Of a stretch of 64,000 bases of DNA, positions 3,839 through 25,819 are shown piece after piece. Source of the DNA: Isurus oxyrinchus (taxonomy: Eukaryota). The stretch is taken from contig JANJGN010000019.1 in the NCBI GenBank assembly GCA_026770705.1, positions 77,996,001 to 78,060,000 on the forward strand, read 5' to 3'. A program made the translations under genes and the position numbers. The notes beneath the pieces are model-generated. The model was not told the DNA's origin. It was given only the letters and a program-made list of their open reading frames with translations, and searched no databases. Within the stretch, counting starts at the first letter, position 1. Each line of letters starts with the position of its first letter.

Positions 3839-3941
3839 ATAAAAACAGAAAATGCTGGAAAAACTCAGCAGGTCTGGCAGCATTTGTGGCGAGAGAAGCA
3901 GAGTTAACGTTTCGAGTCCGTATGTCTCTTCCTCAGAGCAT
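3839..3941 (-). mobile_element. short Penelope-derived insertion (second subfamily) carrying a hammerhead
   Basis: 9-bp TSD ttggatgaa (3830-3838, 3942-3950); 'gctggaaaaactcagcaggtctggcagcat' shared with the other pLTR copies. Confidence 0.8.
3902..3939 (-). ncRNA. minimal type I hammerhead ribozyme
   Basis: Minus strand GCT-CTGAGGA-A-GAGAC(ATACG)GACTC-GAAA-CG-TT-AAC: canonical CUGANGA/GAAA core, stem II with one mismatch, ACGU palindromic stem III. Confidence 0.75.
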
Positions 3942-3966
3942 TTGGATGAATGTGTAATTGTCTACT

Positions 3967-4935
3967 TGGCTCAGTAGTGGCAATTTCACCTCTGAGCCAG
4001 AACTATGGTGGGATCAAGACCCATTCTAGCACTTGAGCAGATAAACTAGGCTGACGCTCGGGGCAGAATCTTATGACACTTGCAGAGGCAGAACCGGGAG
4101 TGAAATCCAAAAGACTGCTGTTGGGTTGGCAGGACAATGCATTCCTGCTTTCGGGTGATCTTGCCAGAGATGGGTAAGCAATGGAAGTGGCTACCTGCCA
4201 GCAGCAGTGGGTGGCCAATTAGGACCAGATTGGGGAGGTGCTGGGATCTTACTGATGATGGGCGGGCACCACGCTGTGGGTGAAGTCTGGCATGTCCCTA
4301 AAGGCAGCCTGGGATCCTCTTCACTCCACAATAATAGCCTCGCAGCTATAGCCACAAATAATTTTAATAATTCCACACATCTTCCGAGTGTGCCTTCACT
4401 CTCCCTGTGGCAGGACATTGCTGTGGGGTCTGTCATGGGCCCATCTGGGTATCTGTTCCCTCTGCCGCCATTAATTGGACAGTGCTCTCGGAAGCTGCTG
4501 CTTATTCGGCTGCTTTTGGTAAGATTGCACAAGTGGACAGCTAGGCATCGCTATGATGACATAGACCTGCATTTGGTCCCAACCTCAAAACCTTCAAAGG
4601 CAGTAAGATTTTGTTCTCCAATGCAGTAGTGATGAAGTTCTGCTTTGTTAGATGTGCCACCTTTCCTATGAGATGTTAAACCAAGGTCTGCTCAAGCAGT
4701 TGTAAAGCATTACACTTTGAGGAGGAGTAAGGGTGTTTTCTATGTGTCCTGTCCAACATTTGTCCTTCAATATCACTAAAAACAAATTAGCTGCTCACTT
4801 ATCACATTGACGTTTTGGTACCTTGCTGCACGCACGCACACACACACTCTGCTGGGTTTGCCTGGCGATTACATTTCAATCGTACTTCGTTTGCGGTAAA
4901 ACTCTTCAAGAGAAGAACTATATAAATGAAAGATG
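3967..4935 (+). mobile_element. DeuSINE split by a MITE
   Basis: tRNA-like head 'tggctcagtagtgg...gatcaagaccc'; body resumes at 4617 'tccaatgcagtag'; tail 'ctatataaatg'. Confidence 0.75.
4061..4616. mobile_element. non-autonomous Harbinger-type element (MITE)
   Basis: Imperfect TIRs gggcagaatctta and taagattttgttc; 3-bp flanks tcg/tcc; cleanly interrupts the SINE. Confidence 0.65.
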
Positions 4936-4959: not shown

Positions 4960-5991
4960 CTGGACATTCTTCCTTTTCAGAAACAGTCTAATTCTGTTTT
5001 GAATTCCTCTATTGAACCTGCCTCATCCATACTCTCAGACAGCATACTCTGTACTTTAACTACTTACTGCATGAAAATTTTTCCTTATATTGCTTTTGCT
5101 TCTTTTGCTAACTATGTTGCATCCGTGTGTGCTCTTGTTCTCAACCCTTCTGCAAGTGGGAACAGTTTATCCCTACTCTGTCCAGACCCTTCCTGATTTT
5201 GAATACCTCTAGCAAATCTCCTCTTAGCCTTCTTTCCTCCAAGAAAAATAGTCCCAACTTCTCCAATCTGGCATCATAATGAAGTTCCTTATCCCTGGAA
5301 CCATTCTTATGAATCTTTTTTGAAATCCCTCCAGTGCCTTCACATCTTCGCCGAAAGTGTGGCTTCCAGAACTAGACGCAATACTCCAACTGATGCTGAA
5401 CTAGTGTCTTATAAAAGTTCAACACAATGTCCTTGCTTTTGTACTTTATGCCCCTATTAATTAAGCCATCCTACATTCTCTCCTTTATTCTTCCCTCACC
5501 CTCTCTCATGGCTGATATGTTTGTAGCCTTAATTCCACTTTCTTGTCTACCTCCCATAACTCTTGATTCTCCTGTGTGTCAAAAATCTGTCTAATTCAGC
5601 CTTGAATATATTCAATGCCGCAGCCTCCACTACTTTCTGGAGTAGTGGATTCTGAAGATTAATGACCCTCTGGAAGTAGAAATTCCTCTCCATCAATATT
5701 TTGATTGGAAAGCCCCTTATTCTGAAATTGTACCCCCTAGTTCGAGATTTTCCCCAAAGAGGAATCATCCTCTCAGCATCTCCCCTGTTAAGTCCCCTCA
5801 GAATCTTATGTCAATAAAATGACCTCTTTGTTCTAAACTCCAATGAGCACAAGCCCAATCTGCTCAACCTTTCCTCAGAAACAACCCCTTCATCCCTGAA
5901 GTCAGCCTAGTGAACCTTCTCTAAACTGCCCACAATGCAAATATATCTCTCCTCACATAAGGACACCAAAACCATGAGCAGTAATCTAGGT
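4960..5991 (-). mobile_element. two CR1 3'-end fragments
   Basis: Minus-strand ORF 5547-5768 'SRTRGYNFRIRG...RNFYFQRVINLQNPL...IFKAELDRFL' is a CR1 ORF2 C-terminus; a second similar piece lies at 4960-5470. Confidence 0.8.
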
Positions 5992-21225: not shown

Positions 21226-22782
21226 TTGGTGCAGTCCCCCTCAGTATCGACTATCTGTGTCAAATTGATGTCATCTGCAAATTTATAAATTGTATTTTTG
21301 ATTCCAAAGATCAATAAATTTGGCAGCTGAACTCTTAACTGTCTAACTTGTTTTAAACTATTGAAATCCTCTCTGCTTCAATCACTAACCCCTTTAATGC
21401 ATTCCACAGCCTCACAACCTGTTAATAAAATTTCTGCTACTCTATGTCCTAAACCTCCTGCATTTAATTTTGCATGTATCTAGCTCATTGGGTATTGGGG
21501 TTAGAAATGGGCATCAGTCATTTTATAAATGGAGAATGCTGATCGTTTACAATAAAATGAGAAAATGACACATACACTGTTATCATCTGAGAAAGAAAAG
21601 TTAAATGTTTCAGTATGACCTCTTCATTACACTGGTGAAGAGCACCACCCAGAACATGAGCTTGTTTTCTCTGTTTCAGATTCTGACCAATATGCGATGC
21701 ATTTCCATCAATTGTCTTTTGTTGTGCTGTCATTAGTTTAATGTCACATGATACGTTCAAGCTTTTCTCACAGAGGGAGCTAAATTTTCCCTCTGCTGCA
21801 TGCAACTGATAATTGAAAACTTATATAGATTCTGCTTAGTAAGACACAGTTGTTCCCCCCAAAATATATTATTCCCCCTTCTCATAAATGTAATTCCAAG
21901 ATGTTGGATATGCACATGGTTCCATCATCTATCAGTGATCTTGGAAAGATGAACTGTATGGCCATACAAGCTGTGCTTAGGTGCTACATTTTGCAGGATG
22001 ATTTCTATCAAATGCACTGCCCGAAGTAAAAGAAGGAAGCAAAGATCATTTATTATTATTGATTTTGTTAAACAATCTGCACCTGCTAAGTTTTGATTTT
22101 AATTATATACTGATTTATGGTTGGATTTGTACTTTTGCTGTGGTCATGTGTAAGCACTATCTGAAGCATAAATAAGAGATTAAATGACTGAAAGATTGAA
22201 TGGACCAAAGAAAATCATAACACTGTGAGCTCAGTCAGAAATTGTCCCATCAACACAAACCCTTCATGTTATCTACTATAAATTTAGGCATCCTTGCATT
22301 TAAGAACATGTGAAGCATGAGCAGGAGTGTACTATATGGCCGCTCAAGCCTGTTGCACCATTTAATACAATCATGTCTGATCTTCAGCCTCAACTGCACT
22401 TTCCTACTCGCTCTCCATATCCCTTGATTCCCTGAGAGAGCAAGAATGTCTCTATCTAGGCCTTAAATATATTCCACACTGGAGCAGCCATAACCCTCTG
22501 GATTACAGAATTCCAAAGATTCACAGCCCTTTGAATGAAGAAATTTCTTCTCATCTCAGTCCCAAGTCATTAGCTCCTTATCCTGAGACTGTGCCCCAGT
22601 GTCCTGGATTCCCTAGCCAAGGAAAACAACCTCTGAGTTTACCCTGTCAAGCATGTTCAGAACCTTTTAATGTTTCAATGAGATCACCTCTCATCCTTCA
22701 GGGCAACCCTGTCACCTCAGGATCCAATCTCAAGAAGCTTTGCTGTATGACCTCCAATGAAAGTATAAACTTCCTTAGGTAT

Positions 22783-22953
22783 TGTTTCAAGTTCAAGGAC
22801 AACAGTGCTGCTTCACTGTTTGTCTCAGTGAGAGGTCTTTATTGAACTGTCTGTTAGGATATTTGCCTCCACAGACACAGCCTCATGGCATAATCACATG
22901 ACTATGGAAAGCCAGATGTGACATCAGACTGATTGCATTTCAAAACCCAGACA
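22783..22953 (-). repeat. 3' LTR
   Basis: Direct repeat of 25482-25654, roughly 85% identical by eye; adjacent polypurine tract. Confidence 0.9.
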
Positions 22954-23520
22954 TCCCCCTTTACATATCGAACAAAAGAAACAAACGTCCCCCTTTTCCT
23001 AGCGAACAGATGACACATTTGCATGCACGATCCTGTGTGACTGAGTTACCCAAGTTATCCACTATTTTCATGCATTAACAACTGTTTGTTTTACTAGTCA
23101 GCCACTGCACATGTATTGTATACACAGTCTTTAAATCGTGCTGGTCTCTTAATGGTATGCATGTGGGTTGGCATTGGCCGCTCATCTAAGTGATGTTCTT
23201 TGTCTGCAGAGTGTCTTTCCTCTGGCCCTTGTTGCCTTGATGACTGTTGTTGTTCCATTGTGGTTGTTGGGGATATTTGGATCTCTGGGATTGACAGTAG
23301 TTCTGTACGCAGTACCGCTGGTGAGACCCCTTCTTCTTGACTGGTCAATTGCTGTGAAGGAACAGCTTCACTAGTTGATCATATACCCCTGCGATTGTGC
23401 TGGTATATTTGGTTGCTCACTTCCACTATGTATGATCAAGGTGACAGTTTCTCTATATGTCCCAAGTTTACACGTGGGCTGACTCCTATTGAGAGCATTG
23501 AGGGTTTGTACCCTGACTGG

Positions 23521-23885
23521 CTCCTCATATTCTTCCATGGTTACATAGTGATTCTTCAAGGAATCTTTCAAGGTTGCAACTTCTTGGCGTGCCTTTTCTG
23601 TCTACTGTTTTGCCTGGCTGTACATCTGGTTGAGTTTTTTCAACTCCAACTTTGAGTTGCCAACTGTGGAATTGAGGGTTATTATTTCCTCCTGATACCT
23701 TTTGTGTTGTTTCTGAAATTTGTTTGTTCAGACCTCATACAGTTTGGTTCATTGAAGACTTCAATTTATCATGTGTTGTCAAAGGTATATATTCAGCTGA
23801 ATCTTGCCCTTCAAATCTTCCAGTTCAGCTCTGATGTGTACATTTTCCTGTAAAGCTGCTTCATTTACCTTCAACTTGTGCATTT
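23521..23885 (-). pseudogene. captured fragment resembling the UACA/RAI14/ANKRD24-family coiled coil
   Basis: Frameshift-corrected ...AELEDLKGKIQAEYIPLTTHDKLKSSMNQTV*GLNKQISETTQK and RYQEEIITLNSTVGNSKLELKKLNQMYSQAKQ*TEKARQEVATLKDSLKNHYVTMEEYEE; aligns ungapped with recalled UACA blocks. Confidence 0.7.
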
Positions 23886-23934
23886 CATTGCACTGATGTG
23901 GTCAGTAACCATCTTGTGGTTTACTTAAATATTG

Positions 23935-24048
23935 TCTCCCTTGCTCTGGAGTCTTTTGTTTCCCTCCCTCTGGGGTTTTCTGTTACCTTCTCTCTGGAGT
24001 CATTTGCTGCCCTCCCTGTGGGGTCTTTTGCTGCCCTTTCTCTGTTGG
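23935..24048. repeat. 24-bp tandem repeat, about 4.5 copies
   Basis: gtcttttgtttccctccctctggg / gttttctgttaccttctctctgga / gtcatttgctgccctccctgtggg / gtcttttgctgccctttctctgtt. Confidence 0.8.
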
Positions 24049-24049
24049 C

Positions 24050-25200
24050 ATGTTTAGGGTTACCAACCCAAGATTTAGACTTGCCCCAGCTGAGATGAGT
24101 GGCCATTGTGTCCCATTTATGATCTGGAATTCTAGACCTTCCTTCTTGCCATTGCATTGGGCTTTCGGACTAATTTGTCTTCTCGGTATGAGTATTGTGC
24201 CATCATATAGCCTCAACTTCACTTTCATTTGCGGATCGCTGTGTTGTGCCACTTTGCACAGGTCTATGAAAGTCATGATGTTGCATGATTCACCAGTGTC
24301 GCTTAATACTTTCCTTCTATGGTCATCATTGTTACAGTCACAAACCATTCATTGCCTATAGATTTGACGGAACCAACCTGTTGTATTGTGTATAGTTCTT
24401 CATCAGACTCTTCTGCCGATATTTCTCCAGTGGCCATCTGTATAAGCTTGTGTTGCTTCTTTCCAGCCAAATGCTTGTGTGTGAAATGATTCTGCTTCCT
24501 GCAGTTAAAACACTGCTCCCCCATGTTGGGCAATCCTTCTTTCCCTTCGTCCTGAACAGTATTTGCATCCAGCCCTTTGCTTGTGATTGCTCTGCTCTTT
24601 CAGCCTGGAATGTATCTCAGCATAATTTCCTGGTCTGCCCTGCCATACATGTGCTCTAGCTGAAGTTTTACAAGTTCCACATTTTATCACATATCACATG
24701 TCTCTTGCTTTCTTCAGCATCAGTTTCTCATCTTTTAGCAGACTTGCTCTCACCGAGGGCTCTCGCACGCCTAAGACTAATCAATCTTTAATCAGGTCAT
24801 CTTTTAGCTTTCTGAATTCACATGATTCTGCAAGCTGTGCTACTGCAATCATGCACTGATTTTACAGTTTCTGTCTCTCCTTGAGCTCGAGTGTTGAATA
24901 CAGAGCATTCATTCGTAACTTTCACTTGGTGTTCAAAATGTTCATTCCAGGCATTCAAAATCTCTGCTGTCTGTTTTCTTTGCTCATTGGTTGGATTTAG
25001 GATGGTATATAGCAGTCCATCACCAGCAGTGCTAAGAGTGTGGCTACTCTTATCAGTTCCAGCTTGTTAAGTTCATTGCAATCTCATAGTTTTGCCATTG
25101 CAAGTGGAAAAACTACCATTTTGCCATGTATCTCCTTTAATTTCAACTGGAGATGGGATTGGAAAGTTTACAGCAAAGATGTGACTCACTCAGTATTTTA
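24050..25200 (-). pseudogene. Gypsy gag (zinc knuckle) and aspartic protease remnants
   Basis: CKYC and CFNCRKQNHF knuckles; protease DTGESCNIM at 24274-24300; PLISAGASLNLGLV. Confidence 0.85.
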
Positions 25201-25350
25201 CTTGCAGCTTTCGGTATATGTTTACCTTTACTTGTCCTTTTCAGCAGCTTTTTGCAAATTTGAACATTTCTGTGTGCCTTTCTGAACTGTGTCTTCCATG
25301 CAGCATTTCCTGGGTTGAAAAATCTATTTTTTCTCCATTTCTCACACCAT

Positions 25351-25479
25351 GGATGCTATTTTCCACTCCTGCCCGCTGCCAGCATCTTCCGGTCCCACCG
25401 CAAGTCAATGCATTTCTGGCTGGGGCATCGCCTTGCTCACAGCAGGTCCCACCTGCGACGGGGCTAGAAAATCCTTGCC
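25351..25479. mobile_element. 129-bp Harbinger-type MITE at the LTR/PBS junction
   Basis: TSD CAT (25348-50, 25480-82); imperfect TIRs ggatgctattttcc and agaaaatccttgcc. Confidence 0.75.
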
Positions 25480-25481
25480 CA

Positions 25482-25654
25482 TGTTTCAAGTTTAAGGTCA
25501 GCAGTGCTTCTTCAGAGTCTGTCTCAGTGAGAGGTCTTTATTGAACTGCCTGTTCAGATGCCTGCCTCCAGAGATATACAACCTTGTGGCATAGTCACAT
25601 GACTACAGAAAGCCAAATGTGATATCAGACTGATTACATTTCAAAACCCAAGCA
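25482..25654 (-). repeat. 5' LTR
   Basis: Direct repeat of 22783-22953. Confidence 0.9.
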
Positions 25655-25819
25655 GAGATGGAGACCAAAACAGCACAAGGTATTCCAGGTGTGGCCTCAC
25701 CAAAGTCCTGTATAATTGTAGCAAGACTTCCTTGTTCTTGTATTCCAACCCCATTGCAACAAAGGCCAACTCGCCATTTGCCACTTTAATTACCTGTATT
25801 CCTTGTATGAGTACACCCA

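Follow-up and report, generated by a model that had tools for sequence, protein, structure and literature searches.

Host sequences in LTR elements and the shark locus

Retroviral oncogene transduction places a piece of host mRNA within an LTR element, and microsimilarity is found at the fusion points. Tan et al. 2016 (PMC5131818) have described LTR-mediated retroposition in animals, in which host mRNA is captured by LTR elements. Pieces of three host genes are carried by the maize LTR element Bs1 (PMC13317346; cited in PMC5131818), the product of which is called a hybrid open reading frame in a title cited in PMC13317346. In bdelloid rotifers, acquired ORFs were swapped between retroelements and not re-captured from the host (PMC5408684).

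The element considered here lies in a 64,000-nt stretch of Isurus oxyrinchus DNA, hereafter the window. Its family, designated A, resembles the cases of Tan et al. in that internal ORFs are replaced by partial host sequence. The intron loss of those cases is found here in the TPR part of family C and D copies. Putative microsimilarity at the switch points of family A measures about 4 nt (3') and 5-8 nt (5'). Unlike the retrocopies described in that account, which are young and few per species, the shark cassette founded several families numbering in the hundreds or more, and one piece crossed to a family whose LTRs are unrelated and whose primer site is different. Bs1 is similar in having three donor genes; however, it is a plant element with enzyme-type donors as described in PMC13317346, whereas in the shark, a vertebrate, all three donors encode coiled coils and one piece was afterwards handed to another family. 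The exchange between elements is shared with the rotifers. The rotifer genes described in PMC5408684 are added ORF3s, enzyme or env-like, whereas the shark piece stands in for the pol core, and the host gene from which it came can still be recognised at about 80% DNA identity. In the capture of FAM8A1 by HERV-K (PMC5131818), part of a host mRNA likewise lies within an LTR element, and the fusion points show microsimilarity. Unlike that case and oncogene transduction, no env was seen here and the captured form was strongly amplified in the germ line.

The mechanism is already known from Tan et al. 2016 and maize Bs1; what is new is a high-copy, multi-gene form in a vertebrate that was handed between LTR families. 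Animal LTR gene capture is known mostly as isolated retrocopies, and in this genome a three-gene cassette founded several high-copy families. No shark report of such an element was found in the open literature, subscription journals, Repbase and Dfam lying outside the search. UACA, TPR and ninein go unnamed in the main texts of two retrocopy preprints with vertebrate-wide coverage and may be listed in the supplements; the top retrocopy parents given for cartilaginous fishes in one of them (10.64898/2026.06.26.734816) are MIPOL1, SUDS3, SDF2L1, SLU7 and ZNF276.

The window copy is probably best explained as a decayed non-autonomous Gypsy copy, the pol core of which was swapped by template switching from another LTR family, which moved by means of the parent's enzymes and in which the UACA sequence is mainly a passenger.

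Anatomy of the window element, its family and its parent

The window element is a decayed LTR-retrotransposon copy on the minus strand (22783-25654). Its features, all on the minus strand, are as follows.

25655..25659, minus: left copy of the target-site duplication, 3/5 bases matching the right copy
25482..25654, minus: 5' LTR (TG...CA)
25350..25481, minus: nested short repeat between LTR and primer-binding site, not in most family copies
25335..25349, minus: primer-binding site (PBS), decayed; family copies match the tRNA-Leu(CAA) 3' end
24400..25200, minus: gag remnant, broken, limits approximate; knuckle at 24471-24512
24039..24360, minus: aspartic protease remnant; DTG at 24292-24300
24039..24046, minus: 5' swap junction, from which the parent runs on into reverse transcriptase (RT) and family A into the linker
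23933..24038, minus: 24-bp tandem linker, unit number varying; also present in families B and C, with no match in the UACA stretch of the host
23872..23932, minus: spacer, matching the part upstream of UACA in family C
23701..23871, minus: UACA block 1, residues 708-765 (P0003 numbering); frameshift near 23800
23521..23700, minus: UACA block 2, residues ~800-858, after the 102-nt deletion
23520..23524, minus: 3' swap junction, with a microhomology of ~4 nt shared by UACA and the integrase tail of the parent
23110..23520, minus: pol C-terminal tail, matching the parent family
22954..22962, minus: polypurine tract (PPT)
22783..22953, minus: 3' LTR
22778..22782, minus: right copy of the target-site duplication

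The LTRs are about 171 bp long, end in TG...CA and are 86% identical (143/167; K2P 0.175). The element interrupts a very abundant LINE-like repeat (flanks 22400-22782 and 25655-25780), and the flanks overlap by 5 in 2/3 uninterrupted copies of that repeat, which gives a target duplication of 5 nt. The PBS of the window copy is pushed away from the LTR by the nested repeat of ~130 bp. In the family copies the PBS can pair with the 3' end of a CAA-anticodon tRNA, which occurs three times in the genome according to a pattern search; this tRNA has an insertion in the anticodon loop and was missed by ARAGORN but found by Rfam. A look-alike short repeat follows the 5' LTR, at the LTR/PBS border, in three different copies (window 25350-25481, L144 and L076), which suggests a target preference.

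The gag knuckle (C-x2-C-x4-H-x4-H) and the DTG protease motif are present in decayed form, and the copy shows one frameshift near 23800, several stops and no RT, RNase H or integrase. The preliminary description of the locus had listed both LTRs, the PBS, the PPT, the knuckle and the protease, and had regarded the copy as old and interrupted by stops. All of these structures were confirmed, and the copy is indeed old and broken. Pfam searches with the insert and three frames of the window gave weak coiled-coil or repeat matches only, with no gag or protease family. A representative-protein search with a single broken frame returned one match, to an unnamed 1404-aa protein, and a database search for longer proteins with the gag-protease frame found nothing. 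Stops, the frameshift and a within-family Ka/Ks of 1.0 speak against a domesticated or functional chimeric gene at this locus. A 259-nt contig identical to 23607-23865 was rejected as evidence of expression, its depth being 2 and its run being merely guessed to be RNA. Contigs of a second organism span the element-flank borders and the UACA-tail junction at ~98-99% identity, so that the insertion is older than the split from that organism.

The identity of the insert was established with a profile of nine natural copies. For 23521-23871 it gave seven matches. Five were to shark proteins named UACA and a sixth was to an unnamed one, all six at E 1e-40 to 3e-27; the seventh was to a camel UACA at E 2e-4. 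The preliminary description had expected UACA, ANKRD24, RAI14 or ANKRD35 as best hits; UACA was found, and RAI14, ANKRD24 and ANKRD35 were absent among these seven matches. The genome's own UACA gene (G000:C25:4881192-4883918) is 99% identical to P0003 and covers residues 408-1316 in one open stretch. Both window blocks are collinear with it at 79% DNA identity, and 102 nt are deleted between them; this deletion is the internal gap that had been noticed earlier, and the identity answers the proposed comparison with the species' own gene. The host stretch that matches the insert lies within one large exon of 2.7 kb, so the insert cannot show intron loss or passage through RNA.

Family A was defined as a set of 42 copies, 33 of them with the window's 3' junction and nine with another junction into the RNase H-integrase linker. 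A search of the genome (G000) with the insert gave 1561 first-look candidates, of which 40 were scored and 30 extracted; the gag-protease context of the window was present at 24/29 of the other insert loci and missing at 5/29. The protease search (1861 candidates, 150 scored) gave matches that either ran into the linker or stopped before it. Among 20 extracted matches running into the linker, UACA was carried by 18/20, 1/20 was without it and 1/20 was mis-oriented in the mapping. A 27-base junction pattern had 48 genome matches at up to two mismatches (control, 0) and was found in 12/42 family A copies and in 0/68 non-A loci. From this rate the family is estimated at no fewer than about 170 copies, a floor because of biased sampling. 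The searches being capped, the copy numbers of the families are minimum values in general. The copies are dispersed, have the same internal structure and keep the LTRs, PBS and PPT while lacking RT and integrase, and both swap junctions are common to multiple copies. Family A is a non-autonomous Gypsy-type LTR family, as had been proposed, and the window copy is no one-off event.

Nine copies form a subgroup, A2 (L004, L008, L013, L014, L021, L028, L129, L141 and L143), which has the same 5' junction and rejoins the parent in the RNase H-integrase linker. Therefore, the 3' end of family A was formed at least twice.

An autonomous partner with the same LTR and PBS is present in the same genome. 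Twenty extracted protease matches that end at query 104-107 all follow the element as far as window 24039, and UACA is missing from every one of them. Ten of these 20 parent loci rejoin the element from 23523, after a spacer of 2.0-2.7 kb in eight and a longer one in two. Since the parent matches stop at 24039 and resume at 23523, the limits of the swap are 24038-23524. Pfam searches of three whole parent copies (L075, L079 and L085) found RNase H and integrase in 3/3 and RT in 2/3 (L075 and L079). The Gypsy order PR-RT-RNaseH-IN was found in the parent family only (L075, L079), and the putative Ty3/Gypsy assignment rests on this domain order. The parent retains the RT-RNaseH-integrase part where family A carries the swap, in agreement with the replacement that had been proposed. 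The insert had been put at about 360 bp (23521-23885). The UACA part is 23521-23871, and the true swap, with the 24-bp tandem linker and ending in shark UACA residues 708-858, comprises 515 bp.

The median K of LTR pairs is 0.185 in family A (seven pairs, some mis-paired) and 0.175 in the parent (six pairs). Because these divergences are alike, the two were active together, and mobilisation of A in trans by the parent's enzymes would fit. The sequences of A and the parent coincide at the 5' junction as far as a short word, rich in purines and resembling a linker unit, with a microhomology of 5-8 nt. About four bases are common to UACA and the integrase tail at the 3' junction and, as had been read from the window alone, the UACA-to-tail join is in frame with the parent's tail.

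Source of the UACA piece and the three-gene cassette

The five insert loci without gag-protease context belong to family B, for the downstream part of which 1352 candidates were found. Its LTRs are 290 bp long and unrelated to those of A, and the PBS also differs. Family B copies match the window at 24038-23520, including the linker, and nowhere else in the element. Families C and D have 250-bp LTRs and longer UACA pieces, together covering residues 694-1210. In the C subgroup L051, L053 and L056, residues 1184-1210 sit upstream of residue 715, a common rearrangement. A further UACA-bearing element is present at L058:8900-9901, ~2 kb away from the first one of that locus and in opposite orientation to it. 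The loci L046 and L047 (G000:C3, ~0.9 Mb apart) show near-identical D-type matches, which probably represent a segmental duplication; only L046 was counted.

Families B, C and D carry an in-frame UACA-ninein-TPR cassette, of which B keeps only remnants of ninein and TPR. In C copies, UACA is followed by 270 nt of ninein and then by TPR, with a gag-like stub upstream of the cassette in B and C. The stub had no gag match in Pfam and matches the parent's gag weakly (hhalign probability 32%, E 5e-4). The ninein-containing stretch had 1885 candidates, and 150/150 of those scored were significant. All 12 of its matches were to named or annotated ninein-type proteins (best E 6e-34), and this sequence search overruled a reading of the piece as a generic coiled coil taken from protein atlas matches. 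The genome's own ninein gene is on C19, where the corresponding part lies within one large exon and is 77-83% identical in DNA to the piece. The TPR piece was recognised by Pfam (PF25481) and had no match in a search against PDB; the genome's own TPR gene is on C16. Thus, the three donors are located on three contigs, with UACA on C25. The distance between UACA and ninein is 156 nt in 17/23 copies, and that between ninein and TPR is 66 nt in 14/20.

Two further coiled-coil-looking pieces occur in the cassette, ~190 nt before UACA and ~90 nt between UACA and ninein. These pieces (L052 oriented 3909-4076 and 5432-5522; L108:3583-3673) did not match UACA, ninein or the extracted TPR region and possibly belong to a fourth captured gene.

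The TPR part spans seven consecutive host exons without introns. In nine copies, 41/41 covered junctions at six exon joins were intron-free; 13/54 cells of the junction table were uncovered, and the seventh join, which lies in a deleted part, was left out. Since the exon joins carry no introns, a spliced mRNA was captured for the C/D-type cassette. UACA and ninein could have entered at the DNA level, by gene conversion or break repair from a genomic exon or an element copy, which would limit RNA capture to TPR. Both pieces lie within one large exon each, where intron loss would be invisible, as this route requires. Their in-frame fusion to spliced TPR, their sense orientation and purely exonic content, the lack of an intron flank in any mapped copy and the origin of the three genes from three contigs make it improbable.

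The preliminary description had proposed that the window's element took up a host UACA mRNA by template switching. Switching is likely, being suggested by microhomologies of 4-8 nt. Direct capture of host mRNA by this element was not supported: the linker, the deletion and the net Ks point to family B. The net Ks is 0.08 between A and B, as against 0.25 between A and C and 0.39 between A and the host gene; on this measure B is 4-5 times nearer to A than the host is. The 102-nt UACA deletion is common to A and B, and A holds only a subset of the cassette content of B and C together with their non-host linker. In a DNA tree (FastTree), A lies among B and B among C, with weak support (0.14 at the B stem). 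From the match range, the shared linker and deletion, the net Ks and the weak nesting, the piece most likely came from a B-like element, the nearest donor in place of a host mRNA. Sequence comparison thus indicates that the UACA piece of A was probably taken second-hand. The opposite order, in which A took the piece straight from host UACA mRNA and B obtained it later or independently, agrees with the UACA identity and the in-frame swap, both of which are real. Against the content, linker, deletion and distances listed above it is very improbable, and in a protein tree computed without A copies 13/13 B, C and D copies form one clade with support 100.

This clade is sister to the host and Carcharodon (88), and its branching point is near that of Mustelus and Scyliorhinus. 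Of 23 sites that changed on the host lineage, 20 have the outgroup state in the C copies. Judged from these sequences, the capture is ancient and would be placed near or just after the split of the host lineage from Mustelus/Scyliorhinus.

The probable course, with a B-like donor, may be summarised in four steps. An ancestral element with other LTRs would have picked up pieces of host mRNA, as documented for TPR and presumed for UACA and ninein, and these would have been fused in a single frame downstream of a gag-like stub. Deletions then gave rise to families C, D and B, a step seen in the copies. The linker and UACA residues 708-858 of a B-like element would then have replaced the pol core of the autonomous family and given rise to A; here the junctions are observed and the switching is conjectural, and the explanation leaves room for DNA-level recombination. 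Finally A, with its LTRs, PBS, PPT, gag and protease, multiplied while the parent was active, an amplification apparent from the copies and presumably driven in trans.

The cassette has left a dated deletion series. One of its pieces crossed from one family to another with unrelated LTRs, which shows that distinct LTR families recombine. For annotation the copies present a hazard, as they will pass for UACA, ninein or TPR paralogues or retrocopies in sharks. By analogy with a plant review (PMC13317346), they could also yield small RNAs against the three host genes.

Reading frame and selection on the captured sequence

The frame was kept in 11/11 measurable shared rearrangements. Seven of these are deletions, namely four in UACA (102, 126, 282 and 450 nt), two in TPR (117 and 96 nt) and one in the tail (90 nt). 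Three are the UACA-ninein, ninein-TPR and UACA-tail joins, and the last is the modal distance between protease and UACA, for which 19/38 copies are in frame. Matches of 6-8 bases among these coding sequences are in frame in 52-68% of cases anyway (89% for 8-base matches within TPR), and microhomologies of at least 10 nt are in frame in 67-100% on their own. If 55-70% of microhomologies are in frame, the chance of 11/11 is 0.001-0.02. The in-frame excess is modest, because most chance microhomologies are already in frame.

Ka/Ks was calculated by Li's method (neutral baseline 1.0) after six mis-mapped blocks had been removed; the Nei-Gojobori method was dropped, as its baseline came out at 0.5-0.67. 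The within-family value is 1.00 in A and 1.04 in B, so that the copies decay neutrally. The net value between families reflects the active lineages. It is 0.34 for A-B (CI 0.11-1.39), 0.45 for A-C (CI 0.23-0.93), 0.35 for A against four undeleted C copies (0.17-0.75) and 0.56 for B-C (0.28-1.30), with 0.64 (0.38-1.16) over a longer B-C stretch. The dN/dS comparison proposed in the preliminary description thus gave 0.34-0.56 between families and 1.0 within them, and the Gag-Pro-coiled-coil protein envisaged there may be called putative. Two sets of values were set aside. The host-versus-element Ka/Ks (UACA 0.35-0.82, ninein 0.40, TPR 0.27) includes selection on the host gene, and the low gag-protease values between A subgroups (0.08-0.15) are not creditable to A, whose copies are mixed with those of the parent in a tree of poor resolution.

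UACA is a nuclear/cytoskeletal rod, ninein a centrosomal one and TPR one of the nuclear basket. A Gag(-Pro) fusion could have added a multimerising or host-docking rod that aided packaging or nuclear entry of a defective RNA, and selection would have kept such rods. All three identified captures are indeed long coiled coils in sense orientation and one frame, the shared events are all in frame, the net Ka/Ks between families is below the within-family value, and in the comparison with C the net change is lowest at second codon positions. However, the codon-position test was not significant (bootstrap 0.18-0.52), the confidence intervals include 1 for A-B and B-C, and long microhomologies are mostly in frame by themselves. 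Family B was amplified despite a stop at UACA codon 880 shared by 13/15 copies, the stub-to-UACA join is in frame in 5/16 copies, which leaves its frame ambiguous, and the captured part shrank along the series from ~500 to ~120 codons. Moreover, A- and G-rich coiled-coil mRNAs have common short words, which alone would favour switching among them. The functional role is held tentatively, as the less likely reading. Slightly more doubtful still is the broader proposal that a shark LTR lineage repeatedly collected coiled-coil rods (UACA, ninein, TPR and perhaps a fourth) because the rod aided packaging or nuclear access, and that the core passed to an unrelated family as a selected, transferable module. 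The hundreds of fossil copies provide material to ask whether captured host sequence was selected for the benefit of a selfish element.

Most likely, the coiled coil is mainly a passenger that tends to stay in frame under at most mild protein-level constraint; such a constraint while the elements were active is only suggested by the sequence comparisons. The favoured reading is a passenger, the frame of which was maintained for the sake of translation or RNA stability.
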